Positions 52,657 through 64,000 are shown, counted from the first letter of the stretch. The stretch: DNA of 64,000 nt from a bacterium UBP13_UBA5359 (GCA_002410925.1 DHPR01000033.1:392397-456396), one strand, 5' to 3'. Notes: generated by a model not told the origin, from the letters alone. Made by a program: numbers and translations.

Positions 52657-53580
52657 TTATTGCATTCCGAAAAAGCTGAATAAGTAATTACTGAGCATAG
52701 TAGATGCAACTGATGTACCAACAGCTAAGGCTCCAGCCTCCGCGTGGGAAACCATCTTTTCAAGCCATGACTTAGTGTTCTCTCCATAGGCAGGTTTATC
52801 GTTAGGATCCTTATCTGCCTGTATAGCAGCTTTAAGGTCATCAAAATCTTTATTCGATACCCCCAGCGAATCTAAAGCACTTTTAAGACTTGATAAATCA
52901 CCGGCAGTTACATTAAACTCGCCATCTTGTGAGACATTATCGTTACCTAAAGCAACATTTTGCACATTACCTGTAATATAAGTGGTAAAAATTTGCGACA
53001 CTTTCTCTTGAGGTACTGGCGATGTGTTTTGTGGCGCTTCTCCAGCATCGGGAGCTTCTTTTTCAATGGCTAACGAGAAATCAAGTATTCTTGTCTTGAT
53101 TGTGTCAATAACTGAAACCATCGCTCCATACGGAATCATCTTCCATGCACTCAAACAGGCCATATTTTCATATATGTCATTAGCAAAACGAGTTACCATA
53201 TCTTGCGGCCATGGGTCTTTAAAATTCTCACCCGTGTTTTTTGCATCGTTAACAAGTGCGGCATAAGCGCTTATTGGCCCTATGAGATAAGATGTTGTGG
53301 TCATATAGCTTACCTCTTTAGGTATGCAAGATGGCGGAATAGGAGCATTGTCCATGCTACTACCAAATGGCCCAGCGAAAAAGCCATACGACTGTGTATT
53401 TAGAACTCTGTATATTGGGAGATCTCCTTTATCATTATACCCATTTAGCTCATAGTCTATCCAGTCGCTAAATTCCTTATTGTTTAATCTTGCTGCTAGT
53501 ATCTTACATTTACGAAGCAAATTACAGATATCTATGTTGTTATCTACTGCTGCATCTTGGATATCCCTTAAAAGCGGCAC
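52657..53580 (-). CDS. AbiTii-domain protein (putative abortive-infection effector)
   Basis: N-terminus LLRDIQDAAVD...LLRKCKILAARL...WIDYELNGY...LPIYR and IKTRILDFSLAIE resemble the AbiTii domain. The C-terminus carries a hydrophobic helix. Confidence 0.75.
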   Translation of the reverse strand: MPLLRDIQDAAVDNNIDICNLLRKCKILAARLNNKEFSDWIDYELNGYNDKGDLPIYRVLNTQSYGFFAGPFGSSMDNAPIPPSCIPKEVSYMTTTSYLIGPISAYAALVNDAKNTGENFKDPWPQDMVTRFANDIYENMACLSAWKMIPYGAMVSVIDTIKTRILDFSLAIEKEAPDAGEAPQNTSPVPQEKVSQIFTTYITGNVQNVALGNDNVSQDGEFNVTAGDLSSLKSALDSLGVSNKDFDDLKAAIQADKDPNDKPAYGENTKSWLEKMVSHAEAGALAVGTSVASTMLSNYLFSFFGMQ

Positions 53581-53856: not shown

Positions 53857-54378
53857 ATGGAATTAACAGTAGTGGAAAGGATCATTATAGCTAATCAGTT
53901 AAGAATACTAGAGAAGCTTTATCCTGGCGATTACAAAGAACGATTAACATTTATCGAAAGAGGGTACACCTATAACTACAGAGAATTAAGCAGCGGCTTA
54001 AACTCCGAGACACCGCTAGATGTTTGCAACGAAGTCATAGACATACTTGATATGTACCGTTCAATCACTATATCTTATAAAAATCTTCCTGAGACTGATA
54101 TTTCTCCCAATGATATACTTTTTTCTGGGTTCGATATGACCAGCGAAGAGTATCATTATGGATATGCAACATTTTATCTAAATGAATTAGGGCGCTATGA
54201 GGAGCTACTACAAGGAAATCCGAGAAGAGATTTAAATAGCCATGGTCCCACACTCCGACGCTATCGACGTATGCTTGAATGGTGGAAGCCTTTTCTAGAA
54301 GAAGAACAACTTGAATCCATAAATTACACCTTAAATGAAGAGCAAATAAAAGAGCTTCTATCTCTCTGGAAAGCATAG
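53857..54378 (+). CDS. YfbU family protein
   Basis: ERIIIANQLRILEKLYP, ERGY, EVIDILDMY, FSGFD and NSHGPTLRRYRRML match the YfbU pattern; GGGGGAGG RBS. Confidence 0.85.
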   Translation: MELTVVERIIIANQLRILEKLYPGDYKERLTFIERGYTYNYRELSSGLNSETPLDVCNEVIDILDMYRSITISYKNLPETDISPNDILFSGFDMTSEEYHYGYATFYLNELGRYEELLQGNPRRDLNSHGPTLRRYRRMLEWWKPFLEEEQLESINYTLNEEQIKELLSLWKA

Positions 54379-57790: not shown

Positions 57791-58910
57791 CCTCCAAGCC
57801 TCCGTAGGTAACAGTTGTCGCGCCCTCCTGGGCCACCTGGGTGGCGTCCAATGCAGTGTAGACCGGAGCGGTGATAACAACCCGCTTGGCGCCGGCGTTG
57901 AGAATCAGCCGCAGCAGTTCATCCGGATTGATGTCTCTGCCGATCCGCGCACGCTGCCAGGCAGTATAGGCGGCTACGGCAGCATCCACGGCTGTGCGGA
58001 TTGCGTCCACCTGGGCAGCCTGGCTGCGGCCGATATAATAGGTCAAGGTGATATCGTAATTGCCGGCAACCGGCGCTTTGACGCTGACCAGGTCGGTGAG
58101 CGGCCGCCGCGTTTCGTCGTCCAGGTAGTCCTGGACGGTATCCAGAATATCGGCCGCCGGTGCCGGGATGACTCCTCCGGCCAGCAGTATATAGACATCC
58201 ACGCAGCCGGGATCCGGAGAGAGAACGGAGACATCGCTGATCTGGCCGCTGGCGCTGAGAGCGTGATAGATGTAGGCGTCCCGCGGTCCGGCGGTGGAAT
58301 ACTGGGTGATGCTGAGCCTGACCCTCTCGCGATAGCGCTCATCATCCTCCGGTTCGGCTCCTCCGCTGGTGGCGTTGGTATTGCCGACATCGGCGACGCC
58401 GGCTATGGGATCCACCATGGTGGCGATCTCACCGGTGATATAGCCGTTACCGGCCTCGCCGGTGGCCTCACAGACGGCGACAACGCTGACGGTTGTGCTT
58501 CCGGCCGGAATGACGGCAGCCTCAGTGGTGGCGAAAGCCAGGTCTCCGTCCTTGGTGGCCCTGATCCCGGCGGGGATGACTATATCCACGGCCGGGGCAG
58601 GATCAGCGGTGAACTGCAGAATGCAGGTAGCTGCCGCTGCCGTCAGCCGGGGAACGCCTCTCGATTCTCCGATCACGTCCAGGTAGAGCGACCGAGCGTA
58701 TTGCAAAAAGGTCTGAGCAGCCGCATCATCGAGCAGCGCCCTCTCTTGGGCAATCTGCTGGGCGATGGTCAGCAGCTCCAAACGGACGGGATCTCCGGGA
58801 TAGAGCGTCCTGCCGGCGGCTGCCTCATAGCGGCTGATAACGGCGTTGGCTATGGCCTCCGGACTGGTATTGACCCAGGATATTTCGGGGATGATATAGT
58901 TATCAGACAT
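57783..58910 (-). CDS. Baseplate J/gp47 protein
   Basis: GRTLYPGDP, GGAEPEDDERYRER, TAGPRDAY, RPLTD and IGRDINP motifs. Confidence 0.92.
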   Translation of the reverse strand: MSDNYIIPEISWVNTSPEAIANAVISRYEAAAGRTLYPGDPVRLELLTIAQQIAQERALLDDAAAQTFLQYARSLYLDVIGESRGVPRLTAAAATCILQFTADPAPAVDIVIPAGIRATKDGDLAFATTEAAVIPAGSTTVSVVAVCEATGEAGNGYITGEIATMVDPIAGVADVGNTNATSGGAEPEDDERYRERVRLSITQYSTAGPRDAYIYHALSASGQISDVSVLSPDPGCVDVYILLAGGVIPAPAADILDTVQDYLDDETRRPLTDLVSVKAPVAGNYDITLTYYIGRSQAAQVDAIRTAVDAAVAAYTAWQRARIGRDINPDELLRLILNAGAKRVVITAPVYTALDATQVAQEGATTVTYGGLEDD

Positions 58911-59229
58911 CTTTCACCCTCACTATCAGGCTGACGGTATAGTTGCCGTCTATAAGTTGCTGGATGTTGCCGGCGTTGAGATCCACGCCGCGGATCTCGG
59001 CCCGTGGCTCACTACGAGCAACGGCCTCCATGATTTGCTGTGAGATCATCTGCATGGCTCTGTCTACGGGGGCGTCGATAAAATCCGCATCGATGCCCAG
59101 CCCTCGATCCAGCGGGACACTGAGCCGTTCGGTAGCGGCCAGGATGCGCACGTTCTGGTATACCTCTTCCTCTATAGTCCCTGGATATCTGTTGATGGAA
59201 CCTGTTATGCCGTTGACGTTGACGATCAT
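58903..59229 (-). CDS. Baseplate gpW/gp25-like protein
   Basis: QNVRIL...SVPLDRGLG...EPRA motif. Confidence 0.85.
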   Translation of the reverse strand: MIVNVNGITGSINRYPGTIEEEVYQNVRILAATERLSVPLDRGLGIDADFIDAPVDRAMQMISQQIMEAVARSEPRAEIRGVDLNAGNIQQLIDGNYTVSLIVRVKDV

Positions 59230-59232
59230 ATA

Positions 59233-59748
59233 CTACCTCTTCTTTTGAGTGTTCTTTTTGGTTATGACAACATCCCCGATCCGCGTTACGGTGACCTCAG
59301 TGCTGGTGTTCTGCACTGCTGATTGTTGCCGGGCAATGGAGCTTGCACTCCGGATACGGATGAACGACAACTGCACCTCGGCCCGGGCGGTTGATCCGGA
59401 TCGAGTAAAAACCGTGCTCTCCACGCTCCATGATTCTATGGCCCAGTATGAGCCGCTGCCGCCATGAGGCTTGCCGCCGATGATCAGCGGGTGACTGGTT
59501 CCTGCCTCGGCCAGGCCGGCTACCCTCTCCAACTCGGCCTCCGCATCAACGCCGTGCTGGGTTGCAAAGACCACTGTAAAGCAGGCTGTCCGCGGGGCCG
59601 GGCCGTTCCACTCCTGCACCGGCTCGGCCCCGGCCACCTCATGGGCGTTCCAGCGGCCGCCGCCGGCGGCGCTGATGGATGGTATGGGTGTTTTGCGGCC
59701 GGGGGAAATCTCGAATATCAGGGGGCCGAAGCTGCCTGTCTGTGCCAT
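59233..59748 (-). CDS. Phage tail protein (P2 gpU-like)
   Basis: GSFGPLIF, RWNAHEV, GP and LIIGGK motifs; position between gpV and gpW. Confidence 0.75.
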   Translation of the reverse strand: MAQTGSFGPLIFEISPGRKTPIPSISAAGGGRWNAHEVAGAEPVQEWNGPAPRTACFTVVFATQHGVDAEAELERVAGLAEAGTSHPLIIGGKPHGGSGSYWAIESWSVESTVFTRSGSTARAEVQLSFIRIRSASSIARQQSAVQNTSTEVTVTRIGDVVITKKNTQKKR

Positions 59749-59760
59749 TGATCTACCTCT

Positions 59761-60186
59761 CTATATCCGGACGTTGCCGGCGGCATCCTCCACAATGGTG
59801 TTGCTCTTGAGATGTGCGGCCGTCAGATTGCCGGTGACGGTGACGGCGCCGTCCAGGACGATGGAAGCCGCCTGTATGGTCATAACGCCGTTATGATACT
59901 TAAGTTTGCTGCCGTCCGGGGCCCGGAAGTAGAACATGCCGGCTCCGCTCTCCGGAGGCGTATCCTCATCGTTCCAAGTCTCGCATAGCGCCAGGCCGTC
60001 CTCCTCGCCCTCCTCCCGGAGAATGCACCACACCTGGCGCCCCTTCTCCGGCAGCTTGTAGGAGCCGGCCCAAGCGAAGAACGGCAGCCAATCGGATATG
60101 TAATCCGCGTCCTGGTCATCAAAAAGAACACGTATCCGGTGCGTAGCCGGATCCACGGCGTGAACCGTGCCTATCCTGAGATACAT
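59761..60186 (-). CDS. Baseplate spike protein gpV-like
   Basis: RIGTVHAVD OB-fold, SDWLP, LP..G.QV and beta-helix-type repeats VLDGAVTVTGNL. Confidence 0.8.
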   Translation of the reverse strand: MYLRIGTVHAVDPATHRIRVLFDDQDADYISDWLPFFAWAGSYKLPEKGRQVWCILREEGEEDGLALCETWNDEDTPPESGAGMFYFRAPDGSKLKYHNGVMTIQAASIVLDGAVTVTGNLTAAHLKSNTIVEDAAGNVRI

Positions 60187-61184
60187 TATGTCACCTGCCT
60201 GAGCTTCAATGCGGTGGTATAAGCCGGTCCGGCATGGGCCGTCTCCTCCACGGCGTATTTGCCGTCATACCTTCCCCAGCCGGCCACTTTGACATTCAAT
60301 CCGGAGAGCAGTCGTTCATCACCCACCATGGTGATATCGGCCGTCATCAGACCTCGGTTGGCAGCCATGAGCCTGGCCGGGGCGATGCGCCTGGCTTCGG
60401 CCAGGCTCTCGCAGCGTTCGGTGATGCGCAGCGTCTGCCCGTCGGCCGGGGCGCCGGGGCGGTTATAGGTATATTCCAGCACCTTCTTCCGCTTTTCGTC
60501 CCGATAGCGGATGACGGCCGCCCGGTAGGTGTCCACGCTGTCCCGCTTGAATGAGTGAGACAGCACGGCATCCGTGCCCTTGCGAATGGTGAGCACGCCG
60601 GCGGCGGCATCGAACTTCTTCTGGGGAAAGACGGTGATCTGCCCGTCGCCTACCTTCACCCGCAGCCCTTCACGGGCGCAGAGCTTGAGCAGGAACTCCA
60701 TATCGCTCTGATTGCTCTGGCTCAGCTTCTGGTAGACCGAGTTGATGCCGGCCTGCCAGTTGAGCCTCAGCCTGGCGCCGGCGGCGATCTTCTCCGCCAC
60801 CTGGCGCAGGGAAACCTTGGACCAGGCCTTTGATCTCTTCTCCCGCCGGACGTTGCTGTTGACATCGGCGCTGACCGCCTTTATGGTCATGGTATCCGGC
60901 GGCCCCTGGTGTTCATGGCCGTCCACGGAGAAGAGCCCGCAGGGCAGGCGCCGTGGACCGTCGCCGTCGCTGAGCAGGATATCGGCCCGGATCCTGTCGC
61001 CGCGCTCCGGCATCCAGGCGTTCATCCATCGGCCGTCGGCATCCTCTACGGTGATTTGCAGATCGTCGGCCTGCTCCAGCCCCTCGGTATAGGACCAGGA
61101 GAGAAGAAACGGCTGCAGATCGGCACTGATATCTGTGCTCTGATAGACCACCCTCAGATTGGCCCGCCTGGTGAAATCAGTCAT
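60186..61184 (-). CDS. Phage late control protein D / baseplate hub
   Basis: DISADL, ADDLQITVED, CGLFSVD, GPPD, QSNQSDMEFL and GRYDGKY motifs. Confidence 0.88.
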   Translation of the reverse strand: MTDFTRRANLRVVYQSTDISADLQPFLLSWSYTEGLEQADDLQITVEDADGRWMNAWMPERGDRIRADILLSDGDGPRRLPCGLFSVDGHEHQGPPDTMTIKAVSADVNSNVRREKRSKAWSKVSLRQVAEKIAAGARLRLNWQAGINSVYQKLSQSNQSDMEFLLKLCAREGLRVKVGDGQITVFPQKKFDAAAGVLTIRKGTDAVLSHSFKRDSVDTYRAAVIRYRDEKRKKVLEYTYNRPGAPADGQTLRITERCESLAEARRIAPARLMAANRGLMTADITMVGDERLLSGLNVKVAGWGRYDGKYAVEETAHAGPAYTTALKLRQVT

Positions 61185-61410
61185 CCGTTTCACCTGCCTG
61201 TTTCCAGGGCGGCAGGGCGGCCGCCGCTGGTACATCGACATCCGGACAGACCAACTCAACGCCGGCACTGAAGACGGCGGTCTCGATATGCTCCGGATTA
61301 TGCCGGATGAGCTTGTCCATGTAGGCGCACGATCCGTAAACCTTGTAGCTGATCGTATCCCAGGTGTCTCCCTGGACGGTTACGTATATGTCACGGTAAT
61401 CACCGGCCAT
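61177..61410 (-). CDS. Phage tail protein X
   Basis: YVTVQGDTWDTISYKVYG...N...FSAGVEL.CP...LPPWK. Confidence 0.9.
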   Translation of the reverse strand: MAGDYRDIYVTVQGDTWDTISYKVYGSCAYMDKLIRHNPEHIETAVFSAGVELVCPDVDVPAAAALPPWKQAGETDD

Positions 61411-61555
61411 GACGCGGCTCCTTCTCCATCGGGTTATGGCACATCGGGCACTTGCGCTCGAAGCGTTTCACACATGCATGGCAGAACCGGATATCGCATA
61501 TAGGACAGATATATCCTGATGTTGTAGTAGTTTTCTTACAACTGATACAATTCAC
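61400..61555 (-). CDS. 51-aa C4C4 RING-like zinc-finger protein (absent from the ORF track)
   Basis: GTG start after a GGAGG RBS: MNCISCKKTTTTSGYICPICDIRFCHACVKRFERKCPMCHNPMEKEPRHGR, with four CxxC pairs. It fills the gap exactly and overlaps the tail X start. Confidence 0.75.
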   Translation of the reverse strand: MNCISCKKTTTTSGYICPICDIRFCHACVKRFERKCPMCHNPMEKEPRHGR

Positions 61556-61558
61556 AAG

Positions 61559-62863
61559 CTATCCTCCGTACGGCCCTGTCGGCGGTGTAAAGCTATCTGT
61601 CCACAGGGCCTCACCGTTCAGACAGATGAACTCATCTATATGCGGAAGGCACCGGCCACATCCCGGATATCCTCCTATATAGAAGGGATACGCGTTGGTA
61701 AGCGGGGTTGTAAAATTACCGGACCATATATACTTCGTCCCATTCCTGAAATATGCCATCTCCGATCCATGCTTGACTAACGCTATATGGGTCCATACGT
61801 TATAAGTCGGACCCCAGTACCTCTGCTGGGACAATCCTGTGAATTCCGCCCTCCAGCCGGTATCGGCATCTCCGGAGAAGTAAAGCCTAAAGTATCCCGT
61901 TGAACCCGGCGTTCCTTTACTGAAAACATGACTATCAATCGCCGGCTCTATCAGTTTGATCCAGAAGGCAAATGTAAAATCCCTCGTGCCGAAATTGAAA
62001 TAATCTGCATCCGAGCATTCGATATAGCCGCCTTGGTAGCCTCCGAATGTACCTGATGCCGTGCCGAACACCTTATCGGACGTTATGATCTTCGCCTGAC
62101 CGCTTGCTCCGTCATGTGGTGTCCATATACGGCTGCGTTCATCCGTAAAGGCAGTGCTCTGATCCTCTCCATCAAAATGGAGTAAGGATACCCAATTCAA
62201 TGTAAACGGTGAACCGATAACGTCGAACGCTACTCCGACAATCATATCCCGGGCAATATTGGCGATTGTGTAATGATCATCCGTTACCGGTATAGGTTCG
62301 CCGGCAACATACAGCCCTTGAACCTCATATCCCTCACCCGGAGCAAATTGCAGAAGCAGACTTCCGCCTGCTTCCACCTGTATGGCACCGGACGGAGTAA
62401 CGGTTCCCTGTCCCAGGGATACGGCGATCGTGACGGTGCGATAGAGGACCTCTCCTTCGTATAACTTCAATGACGCTGTATCCGTATAGGTATCATTATC
62501 GTAATAAGTATCCGTCCCGATGAATCCGCCCCAGAGACTATACCTGGCAGTGCCGTTCTCCTTGATGTCAGTGCTCTCATCCACCATGTTGTATTCCGGA
62601 TGCAGCGGGTATTCCATATGAGTACCAGTGTAGGCTATAGTCCATTCAGGGGTATAGACGTGAGCATATACCTTGGTCTCCGTCCATGTATGCATCTCAT
62701 ACTCTGTGCCCTCATCATAGATAACAGGCTCGGTAGCATCAGAGCTTTGCAGCACATACGGGCCGTTTGCATAGGGATAGAGGTTGGCTCCATAAAACCA
62801 GAGATCCGGTATTATTGCCGGCACACTGCCCTGTTTCTTGGGTATATAGATAATCCGTCCCAC
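61559..62863 (-). CDS. LamG/concanavalin-A-like domain protein with an Ig-like repeat (putative virion adhesin)
   Basis: GTG start 62863; GTVTPSG...FAPGEGYEV...YTIANI repeat; SLLHFDG, FGTRDFTFAFWI, WTHIALVK, HIDEF, ALWTDSFTPPTGPY. Confidence 0.75.
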   Translation of the reverse strand: MGRIIYIPKKQGSVPAIIPDLWFYGANLYPYANGPYVLQSSDATEPVIYDEGTEYEMHTWTETKVYAHVYTPEWTIAYTGTHMEYPLHPEYNMVDESTDIKENGTARYSLWGGFIGTDTYYDNDTYTDTASLKLYEGEVLYRTVTIAVSLGQGTVTPSGAIQVEAGGSLLLQFAPGEGYEVQGLYVAGEPIPVTDDHYTIANIARDMIVGVAFDVIGSPFTLNWVSLLHFDGEDQSTAFTDERSRIWTPHDGASGQAKIITSDKVFGTASGTFGGYQGGYIECSDADYFNFGTRDFTFAFWIKLIEPAIDSHVFSKGTPGSTGYFRLYFSGDADTGWRAEFTGLSQQRYWGPTYNVWTHIALVKHGSEMAYFRNGTKYIWSGNFTTPLTNAYPFYIGGYPGCGRCLPHIDEFICLNGEALWTDSFTPPTGPYGG

Positions 62864-62864
62864 G

Positions 62865-63740
62865 TTACACCTGCCTGTAATGGGCTGTAAGCTCCAGATC
62901 GGCGCAATCCACCACATCGCTGATGACAACCGTCACCCGGTCGCCGTCGGCAAAGCCGGTGTCCAGGGCGGCGGATGCTATCACCTGCCCTACCTCCAGC
63001 GCACTATCAGGGACATCCACGCCGCCGATCTGCAATTTGACTGAGCAACTGCCGGCAGAGCAGGCCGCCGCGATCCTGGTCAGATGACCGGCTCCGTTGG
63101 CCCTGGTGGTCAGAGGCACAGTCTGCCCATCTGCAGCAGGCTCCTCGATGACCAGCTCCCATTCCAATTTTTGCTCGATCACCACTATGCCCTGCTGTCC
63201 ATTGACGGATAGGACATAATTGGAGTTTATGGACCGCTGCCAGATGGCGCCGTTGCAGATGATCCAGTCACCAACCTGGAATTCAATGTCGCCGCTGCCC
63301 AGGTTCCTGGTCCCGGCAACATTCACCAGGTATATGTCGCCCGTATCACCTATGCCGTCGGCAAGCTCCGGAGCATTTGTCGAGACATCCCAAGTGCCCT
63401 TGAACTCCATGATTGTGCTGGGCAGCCTACTGGCAGGAACCTTCTGTCCTATATCCAAATCGCATGTGCCGCCAGCGGCGCCCTTCTCGCTGGCCGGTAT
63501 TGCTCCCGTCTGGGCCGCCGTCACCTGGTGAGGATTATCCGTCCGGACATCATGAGCACCGTCTGTCAATTTGTCCAGCTCCGCCTTGTTGTCATGGCCG
63601 TGACGGGCGGCAGTGTTTTCCGCTATATCGGCATGGGTAAACTCGGTTTCATGCGCCGTCACCGCGCCATCCACATATATTTTGGTTGCCCCTGGGATGC
63701 GGTTCTCCTTGCCTGCCCCTATGATCTTATCTCCCATCAT
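62865..63740 (-). CDS. Fibre-like virion protein
   Basis: HGHDNKAELDKL, DNPHQVTAAQTGA, KGAAGG...LD...KVP..RLP, FKGTWD..TN.P.L and VLSVNGQQG motifs typical of phage fibres. Confidence 0.65.
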   Translation of the reverse strand: MMGDKIIGAGKENRIPGATKIYVDGAVTAHETEFTHADIAENTAARHGHDNKAELDKLTDGAHDVRTDNPHQVTAAQTGAIPASEKGAAGGTCDLDIGQKVPASRLPSTIMEFKGTWDVSTNAPELADGIGDTGDIYLVNVAGTRNLGSGDIEFQVGDWIICNGAIWQRSINSNYVLSVNGQQGIVVIEQKLEWELVIEEPAADGQTVPLTTRANGAGHLTRIAAACSAGSCSVKLQIGGVDVPDSALEVGQVIASAALDTGFADGDRVTVVISDVVDCADLELTAHYRQV

Positions 63741-63741
63741 C

Positions 63742-63999
63742 TCACCTCGCCAGTTCTGTATAGCCTTTTTCGGCATACACCAGCATACGATCGTTGGCCC
63801 CGCCGTTGGCAGCCACACCGGCCGCATCGGTCAGCGCCAGGTAGATACGCGGCAACGCTGTCTCCGTCTTGATCCAGGGATCCAGGTTGATCACGGCCGT
63901 GCCGCCGTCTGTTATATAGCCCTCGGCGTTGGCCGGGCTGCAATCATCCTTGTCCTCTCCGTAATCGGCCCGGAAATACACCCGGCCGTTGGGGCTGGA
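63742..63999 (-). CDS. Phage hypothetical protein, C-terminal part (5' end beyond the window)
   Basis: The frame is open to the window edge (SSPNGRVYFRADYG...ELAR*), and its stop abuts the next start codon. Confidence 0.55.
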   Translation of the reverse strand, partial: SSPNGRVYFRADYGEDKDDCSPANAEGYITDGGTAVINLDPWIKTETALPRIYLALTDAAGVAANGGANDRMLVYAEKGYTELAR

Positions 64000-64000
64000 C

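Follow-up and report, generated by a model that had tools for sequence, protein, structure and literature searches.

A putative small phage zinc-finger protein with a RING/ZZ-like predicted fold, encoded by a portable LamG-linked gene

The zinc-finger gene, its LamG neighbour, and the portable core

The window analyzed here is a whole stretch of 64,000 nucleotides (nt) from the bacterium UBP13_UBA5359 (GCA_002410925.1, DHPR01000033.1:392397-456396), and the subject is a short open reading frame (ORF) for a putative zinc-finger protein in the tail region of a prophage. The source genome comprises 2.25 Mb in 40 contigs; the window lies on contig C13, and the reading was extended past the window end. 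The ORF occupies 61400..61555 on the minus strand, between the genes for a LamG accessory tail protein and tail protein X, and has 51 codons, a GTG start, and a TGA stop (minus-strand 61555..61400 begins GTG AAT TGT and ends CGG TGA). The product is ~6.0 kDa and basic (isoelectric point 9.1; 10 Lys + Arg vs. 4 Asp + Glu). It contains eight cysteines in four CxxC pairs, at residues 3, 6, 17, 20, 25, 28, 36, and 39, and the spacing is C-x2-C-x10-C-x2-C-x4-C-x2-C-x7-C-x2-C.

The Shine-Dalgarno sequence GGAGG of the zinc-finger gene (61563..61567, minus) is located 7 nt 5′ of the GTG (61555..61553) and is made of the final two glycine codons of the LamG ORF, which terminates with TAG at 61561..61559. 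The zinc-finger ORF is in the LamG reading frame, and only TAG and CTT stand between the two (61553..61561, minus). At the other end, the Shine-Dalgarno sequence GAAGGAG of tail X (61418..61424, minus) lies within zinc-finger codons 44–46, 7 nt 5′ of the X ATG (61410..61408); the zinc-finger TGA is at 61402..61400, which results in an 11-nt overlap of the ORF with X. The 148-nt gap between LamG and X is filled exactly by the zinc-finger ORF. A previous reading of this DNA, made from the sequence alone (the sequence-only reading), had described the ORF, its cysteine spacing, and both ribosome-binding sites (RBS), and all were as described, with coordinates and sequence in agreement. The extent of the ORF also stood, with one correction: Met1 of that reading is initiated at a GTG codon.

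As a control, cysteine-rich ORFs were counted in the whole genome. At least four CxxC motifs were present in 9 of the 17,147 six-frame ORFs of 30–120 amino acids (aa), the zinc-finger ORF included, which argues that the four-CxxC pattern did not arise by chance. The translations of the other eight were read by eye: six were evident ferredoxin-type (Fe-S) or zinc-ribbon proteins and two were seemingly spurious. No paralogue of the zinc finger was found in the same genome. Judged by its sequence, the ORF is almost certainly a real gene, and it looks like a separately initiated late gene of the contractile-tail operon; its description as a translated late gene was upheld to the extent that a real-looking late gene lies inside an operon of the P2/Mu type. 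A scan of this strand around the LamG–zinc-finger pair gave neither a promoter-like (sigma-70-like) nor a terminator-like site, and the pair is therefore taken to be transcribed as part of the late operon.

The LamG accessory tail protein is encoded at 61559..62929 (minus; Laminin_G_3, E-value (E) 6.5e-12), the longest ORF being 456 aa. The database version of this protein (P0005) has 434 aa and is 100% identical over 95% of the 456-aa ORF, and the true start is probably ~22 codons inside the longest ORF. Residues 1–223 of the predicted LamG structure were poor, with a predicted local distance difference test score (pLDDT) of <50. Together, the LamG and zinc-finger genes make up a low-GC island at 61400..62850 (~1.45 kb, no strand), where GC is 0.475–0.535 in 200-nt windows, as compared to 0.55–0.68 in the flanking DNA (200-nt windows). 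GC and third-position GC (GC3) are 0.503 and 0.535 for LamG, 0.487 and 0.549 for the zinc-finger gene, and 0.57–0.63 and 0.65–0.84 for the other tail genes; the GC of the whole genome is 0.49.

Contigs of four other public runs were compared with window positions 58000..64000. A 37,673-nt contig from a sludge metagenome (X8) matched only 61423..61592 of that region (170 nt, 9 differences, gapless), and a 241-nt contig from a landfill metagenome (X6) matched 61423..61591 with 2 differences; the flanks of both are unlike the window on both sides of the match. This portable core (61423..61592, minus) consists of the last 11 LamG codons (FTPPTGPYGG + stop), the CTT spacer, and zinc-finger codons 1–44. 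It is 95–99% identical across the differing flanks, and recent horizontal exchange is therefore suggested. The upstream flanks of X8 and X6 (30 letters, read by hand in the LamG frame) are open and end with YSNIARYSED and FSNIARYTEN, respectively, followed by FTPPTGPYGG and the stop. The consensus of a nine-protein LamG alignment ends with GYIDxxRIxKGxARYTxSFTPPT, and both upstream ends fit that canonical LamG end. In all three contexts seen, the zinc-finger gene thus stands after a LamG-type gene end, the LamG bodies being different and only the C-terminal FTPPTGPYGG end being common to them, and the gene with its initiation region is a portable unit.

The C-terminal tail of the zinc finger is variable, being KEPRHGR in the prophage and TVE elsewhere. 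In X8, the C-terminus reads E-T-V-E-stop, as in the homologue P0001 (see below), and the AAGGGAGG site of another gene comes after it. Zinc-finger homology across metagenomes stops 13 nt before the X start. The KEPRHGR tail, the ORF's overlap with X, and the RBS that it "supplied" are therefore products of the insertion joint. The coupling to tail X described in the sequence-only reading was consequently set aside as an insertion scar, and it illustrates that an insertion can make genes look coupled in a single genome.

LamG residues 424–436 (61622..61660, minus) read C-G-R-C-L-P-H-I-D-E-F-I-C in place of the canonical GYIDxxRI. The motif, with the spacing C-x2-C-x2-H-x5-C, adjoins the zinc-finger gene and may be a metal site of LamG itself; the X6 and X8 flanks carry the canonical Cys-free motif. 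A 621-nt contig of a further run (X5, fermentation metagenome from a different study) aligns with LamG at 62390..62823 and is then unlike the window for 187 nt. This break at 62823, near the LamG start and the left island edge, may be the left joint of the LamG–zinc-finger module in a variant phage.

The prophage gene order was assigned with Pfam and PHROGs. On the minus strand, it begins with a GpZ-like gene, two small ORFs, sheath (491 aa), tube (173 aa), tail chaperone (121 aa), and tape measure (568 aa), continues with a 122-aa ORF, a 320-aa minor-tail-like protein, LamG (456 aa), and the zinc finger (51 aa), and ends with X, D, V, U, W, J, I, an H-like fibre, a 102-aa ORF, a 74-aa holin-like ORF, and an amidase. 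Tail protein X (61177..61410, minus; LysM-like, Pfam Phage_tail_X E 2.7e-10) is the first backbone gene past the inserted part. In the Paenibacillus phages Lily and phiERICV, 12 of the 19 tail and lysis proteins were matched in identical order, X comes directly after the tape measure, and there is no counterpart of the 122-aa, 320-aa, LamG, and zinc-finger genes. Because the tape measure abuts X in these phages, the four genes are an insertion relative to them; the prophage tape measure is intact, since its C-terminus aligns to the end of the Lily and phiERICV tape measures. The element is a Lily-like myophage prophage. The zinc-finger gene, which is absent at the equivalent place in Lily and phiERICV, does not belong to the P2/Mu-type tail backbone, and the earlier remark that it is not a normal member of P2-like tail modules is in line with these syntenic phages.

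Relatives and predicted fold of the zinc-finger protein

The zinc-finger protein is a near-orphan by sequence. Its sole diverged homologue (P0001, 46 aa, 70–73% identity), encoded on a 1,360-nt contig, was found by a word-indexed search of 5.8 billion proteins, in which P0001 as the query gave no further match. In an exhaustive phmmer search over 1.84 billion representatives, P0001 was recovered with E 2.8e-13, and three long repetitive proteins were discarded on reading as compositional matches. P0001 conserves the core ICDIRFCHA.VKRFERKCPMCHNP (Ile19 to Pro42) and keeps 7 of the 8 cysteines, Cys28 being Tyr. Its N-terminal loop has diverged and includes a gap of one residue; the frame is thereby left intact, as expected under coding constraint.

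Beyond P0001, relatives were scarce. The proposed tblastn check for conservation upstream of tail X gave nothing better than E 0.9 for the zinc finger against 50,697 phage records. One IMG/VR contig is 100% identical and represents the same prophage, and a fermentation-metagenome contig with 99.96% DNA identity comes from the same phage, so that neither is independent. No zinc-finger match was obtained in two scans of one genome per species (peptide patterns and a degenerate DNA pattern). Genome searches at family, order, class, and phylum level (3 genomes each) gave none beyond the window's own genome; with only 3 genomes at each rank, either the host lineage is thinly sampled or the grouping is limited. 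Only unnamed small clusters were found in the ESM Atlas, and Rfam returned one chance-level match. Four sequence variants are known, from fermentation, landfill, and sludge metagenomes or an unplaced Logan contig. The change 61534 T>G in X8 results in Lys8Gln and 61473 C>T in X6 in Cys28Tyr, and P0001 has both residues. The depth of the X6 contig is 2.9, and its Cys28Tyr could be a sequencing error; the agreement with P0001 argues for a real change.

AlphaFold2 was run on the two-sequence alignment. The best model (pLDDT 84.6, predicted template modelling score 0.61) has strands at residues 15–17 and 22–24 and a helix at 26–31 (beta-beta-alpha), and the pLDDT of the five models was 84.6, 82.1, 61.8, 51.6, and 49.3. 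The matches listed by Foldseek against the Protein Data Bank (PDB) were mostly RING, U-box, and ZZ domains (best E 1e-2 with probability 1.00; mostly 0.9–1.0), and one chain each of TFIIE and of a ribosome was also among them. The top VIA-align match was 9fhl_a (Z 6.9, root-mean-square deviation (rmsd) 1.1 Å, 47 residues, 28% identity), followed by the U-box of Prp19 (Z 5.6), the ZZ domains of Nbr1, HERC2, and p62 (5.1–5.4), and the RING domains of SIAH1, TRAF6, and Ring1b (4.7–5.0). Among the 50 rows listed from BFVD, eukaryotic-virus RING proteins lead; no row carries a phage name, and several are unnamed.

C4C4 RING variants with x4 spacing exist, such as those of CNOT4 and p44. The canonical RING consensus, in the form given in the available text of PMC11354881, is C-x2-C-x(9-39)-C-x(1-3)-H-x(2-3)-C-x2-C-x(4-48)-C-x2-C; the zinc finger differs from it by Cys instead of His at ligand 4 and by x4 instead of x2-3 before ligand 5, and the rest fits. 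With the RING, U-box, and ZZ domains (TRAF6, Ring1b, SIAH1, Prp19, p62/HERC2/Nbr1), it shares eight ligands in four pairs and 3 of the 4 variable spacings in the consensus, and in the predicted model these domains superpose on its hairpin and helix (Z 4.7–5.6, rmsd 2.3–3.2 Å, 44–50 residues). In contrast to them, it is all-Cys, has a variable sixth ligand, is a 51-residue stand-alone phage protein, and shows no significant sequence match. The structure 9FHL is the Saccharolobus 30S subunit, and its aS34 protein (~80 residues, two zinc motifs, 7 cysteines) is called RING-like in the available text of PMC11698992. On an inferred chain identity, 9fhl_a is probably this archaeal ribosomal protein. 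aS34 resembles the zinc finger as a small stand-alone two-zinc RING-like protein; unlike the phage protein, it binds rRNA h33 with uS3 and uS14 and is confined to Thermoprotei, as far as the same source describes (PMC11698992). No sequence match to 9fhl_a was found in the PDB search at E ≤ 10.

Sequence profiles gave little. The zinc finger scored E 1.6 (9.5 bits vs. the 27.3 cut-off) with Pfam zf-RING_2 and E 1.6 with zf-C3HC4_2, and P0001 scored E 0.51 with zf-C3HC4_3. Prok-RING_1, _2, and _4 were absent from the 17 and 10 Pfam families listed at E ≤ 10 for the zinc finger and P0001, respectively. The motif Y.CP.C...[FY]C..C recalls zf-HIT, and the match to that family (PF04438) was E 0.67 (10.2 bits vs. 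the 24.7 cut-off). PHROGs had no family at E ≤ 0.01 for the zinc-finger protein, NCBIfam matched only transcription factor E (E 0.48, 9.9 bits vs. the 149.5 cut-off), and the best E in the PDB sequence search was 0.19. On the predicted model, the likeness to RING is a likeness of fold and not family membership. Accordingly, the RING-like reading made from the sequence held for the predicted RING/U-box/ZZ-like fold and did not extend to membership, no profile having reached its cut-off. The AlphaFold and Foldseek check proposed with that reading gave neighbours that were mostly RING/U-box/ZZ and not a Com-like single ribbon, the scores being below significance.

A RING/ZZ-like cross-brace is considered somewhat more probable for this protein than the alternative of two sequential ribbons, and the protein most likely binds two zinc ions via the four CxxC knuckles. 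Several results speak against this fold. The prediction rests on a two-sequence alignment, and three of the five AlphaFold2 models are at pLDDT 49–62. Foldseek gave no PDB match at E ≤ 0.001. In VIA-align, 348 of the 48,161 chains had Z of at least 2, 8 had at least 5, and 0 had at least 8, and Z below 8 is common among unrelated small models. The best Pfam family, and the only one with E < 0.001, was DZR (PF12773; E 5.5e-4, 20.5 bits vs. the 27.3 cut-off), with which the match covers residues 22–46 only; P0001 scored E 0.28. DZR has four CxxC-type knuckles in common with the zinc finger and forms two sequential ribbons, whereas the zinc finger is predicted to be interleaved. Finally, 2 of the 4 known variants, P0001 and X6, have Tyr in place of the sixth ligand, Cys28, so that a two-zinc site with all eight cysteines is no strict requirement.

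Possible roles of the zinc-finger protein

From the gene anatomy, the zinc-finger protein is tentatively proposed to bind the LamG accessory tail protein as a zinc-stabilised partner. The proposal is supported by its place in the late operon, the initiation site in LamG codons, the shared composition, and the repeated adjacency to LamG-type ends. LamG and the zinc finger constitute a two-gene low-GC module inside the four-gene accessory insertion between tape measure and X. The two would be produced together, as is expected because the zinc-finger RBS is built from the final LamG codons, and the zinc finger could then serve in folding or assembly, or as a small adaptor subunit by which LamG is attached to the tail. 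Its target may be the conserved LamG C-terminal peptide FTPPTGPYGG, and such recognition would explain a constant zinc finger next to varying LamG bodies; in a more speculative form, it would be a ZZ-like reader of this peptide that docks adhesins onto the tail. A Zn-binding tail assembly or structural factor had also been suggested in the sequence-only reading; of the options given there, it is the one that fits the context, the partner being LamG and not X.

Tail-fibre assembly or chaperone genes are often found directly 3′ of a fibre or adhesin gene. The zinc-finger gene is likewise small, located 3′ of a receptor-binding-type gene, translationally linked to it, and seen to move with it. 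Unlike the zinc finger, known fibre chaperones are not zinc fingers, and they usually co-vary with the fibre tip, while here the zinc finger is constant and the LamG body is variable. This last point is one of those that tell against a LamG partner: co-variation would be expected of a chaperone in contact with the body of LamG, and the zinc finger is 95–99% identical where the LamG bodies differ. The common FTPPT motif could also be a mere recombination hot spot. Furthermore, a zinc-finger neighbour was absent from 4 of the 4 LamG loci of cultured phages that were inspected, and from Lily and phiERICV. On the same count (0 of 4 loci), a general association of such a zinc finger with LamG genes in cultured phages was rejected. 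A complex prediction for LamG and the zinc finger scored 0.00 in two runs without controls and counts neither way.

An autonomous accessory mini-protein of the "moron" type at a recombination-prone junction, acting on the host or on a competing element (anti-defence, exclusion, or host modulation) and only incidentally adjacent to LamG, is a somewhat unlikely alternative to a LamG partner. In its favour are the small size, the basic charge, and the scarcity of relatives (a single diverged homologue in the 1.84 billion representatives, and none in phage, viral, and genome collections beyond the same phage), together with a 170-nt core that is 95–99% identical in unlike flanks and a position exactly at the insertion joint. 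Yet the gene has neither a promoter nor a terminator of its own, it sits in the late structural operon and starts from an RBS made of LamG codons, and a LamG-type end is upstream in 3 of 3 contexts. A functionless remnant, in decay or untranslated, would account for the variants with Cys28Tyr, for homologues being so extremely rare, and for the joint-derived C-terminal tail. It is very unlikely, as the frame, RBS, and start are intact, the eight cysteines form regular pairs, P0001 combines a one-residue gap with a conserved core, and the frame is open in the four variants. Nor is read-through of the TAG, which would make the zinc finger an occasional C-terminal extension of LamG, given more than a slight probability: the ORFs are in frame with TAG-CTT between them, kept gapless in X6 and X8, yet this frame is expected by chance in 1 of 3 cases, the zinc-finger gene has its own GGAGG, 7 nt, and GTG, and no LamG–zinc-finger fusion was present among the 1.84 billion representatives. 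TAG also terminates 9 of the 19 tabulated prophage genes, and no suppressor tRNA was found in the prophage or among the genome's 40 tRNAs; recoding of TAG was rejected on these grounds.

Phages of the Mu and P2 types have small zinc-finger regulators. A nucleic-acid-binding regulator similar to the translational activator Com of Mu or the late activator Ogr of P2, tuning the downstream tail genes or the cassette, would fit the charge of the protein (isoelectric point 9.1, 10 Lys + Arg vs. 4 Asp + Glu) and the presence of a TFIIE zinc domain among the matches. It would also fit the top structural neighbour, 9fhl_a, if this is aS34 with its two zinc sites and its rRNA binding, as is probable from the available text of PMC11698992. 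Ogr/Delta and Com (for Com, the available text of PMC6483171) are also tiny Cys4-type zinc proteins in or beside tail or late regions; in contrast to the zinc finger with its four knuckles, they have one zinc site, their own regulation, and no tie to LamG. No recognised Ogr/Delta or Com family was among the Pfam families listed at E ≤ 10, and none was found in PHROGs. It would also be unusual for a regulator to be encoded mid-way in its own target late operon, and the tail of the protein differs between variants (KEPRHGR vs. TVE), so that a regulatory role is distinctly unlikely. The sequence-only reading had further suggested a phage RING E3 mimic or decoy that protects tail assembly from defence of the Ubl type (Ubl, ubiquitin-like protein). 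In its boldest form, such a protein would engage a conjugation pathway as an E3 mimic, or as a decoy divert the E2~Ubl of a Bil-type system away from the tail proteins, and it would travel as a portable mini-gene on LamG adhesin cassettes. Bil conjugates Ubl to the phage central tail fibre (bioRxiv 10.1101/2023.09.04.556158, available text), the zinc-finger gene lies within a tail operon, and the predicted fold is RING-like. Against this stand the lack of a RING profile match, x4 between ligands 4 and 5 in place of the canonical 2–3 with Cys instead of His at ligand 4 (PMC11354881, available text), the loss of one zinc ligand in 2 of the 4 variants, and the fact that, in the available description, Bil needs no E3. 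In the host genome, E2 searches (UQ_con and Prok-E2_B) had no match, a weak negative because both were also silent in all 14 control genomes. E1 and JAB candidates were limited to one ThiF match over the cut-off, with a second, weak one below it, and one borderline Prok-JAB match at the cut-off in a 234-aa frame. An E3 mimic or decoy was thus judged highly improbable.

For phages of bacteria, descriptions of RING-like folds seem to be few. In the light of the model, the protein appears to be a small phage zinc-finger protein with an unusual RING/ZZ-like predicted fold, encoded by a LamG-linked portable gene. If it is truly a two-zinc cross-brace partner of LamG, it would represent a new kind of small partner for swapping and mounting receptor-binding accessories, and a RING-like fold serving outside ubiquitin chemistry in bacteria. 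The reach of this proposal is limited, with four sequence variants, all metagenomic or from an unplaced Logan contig, and a putative function.

Other genes and features of the prophage

The first gene after the tape measure is the 122-aa ORF, the 3′ part of which lies at 63742..64000 (minus) and which extends to window-equivalent position 64110; it had no family match. It is followed by the gene for the 320-aa minor-tail/fibre-like protein (62865..63827, minus; phrog_13892), which is within the insertion and has a backbone-like GC. Over its middle part, this protein shares 38–55% identity with "minor tail proteins" from phages of the actinobacterial genus Gordonia, and this part is a mosaic tail domain that crosses phyla.

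At the prophage end past the lysis cassette, an AbiTii-domain protein (PF18864, E 1.6e-43) is encoded at 52657..53580 (minus) and a YfbU-domain protein (PF03887, E 2.7e-37) at 53857..54378 (plus). Both are likely prophage cargo or defence genes, and host-type dehydrogenase genes come after them. On the other side, ~26 kb past the window end on contig C13 and beyond the prophage head genes, tRNA-Thr(cgt) (L003 6603..6678) and tRNA-Phe(gaa) (L003 7900..7975) are located, and these may mark the prophage attachment site.

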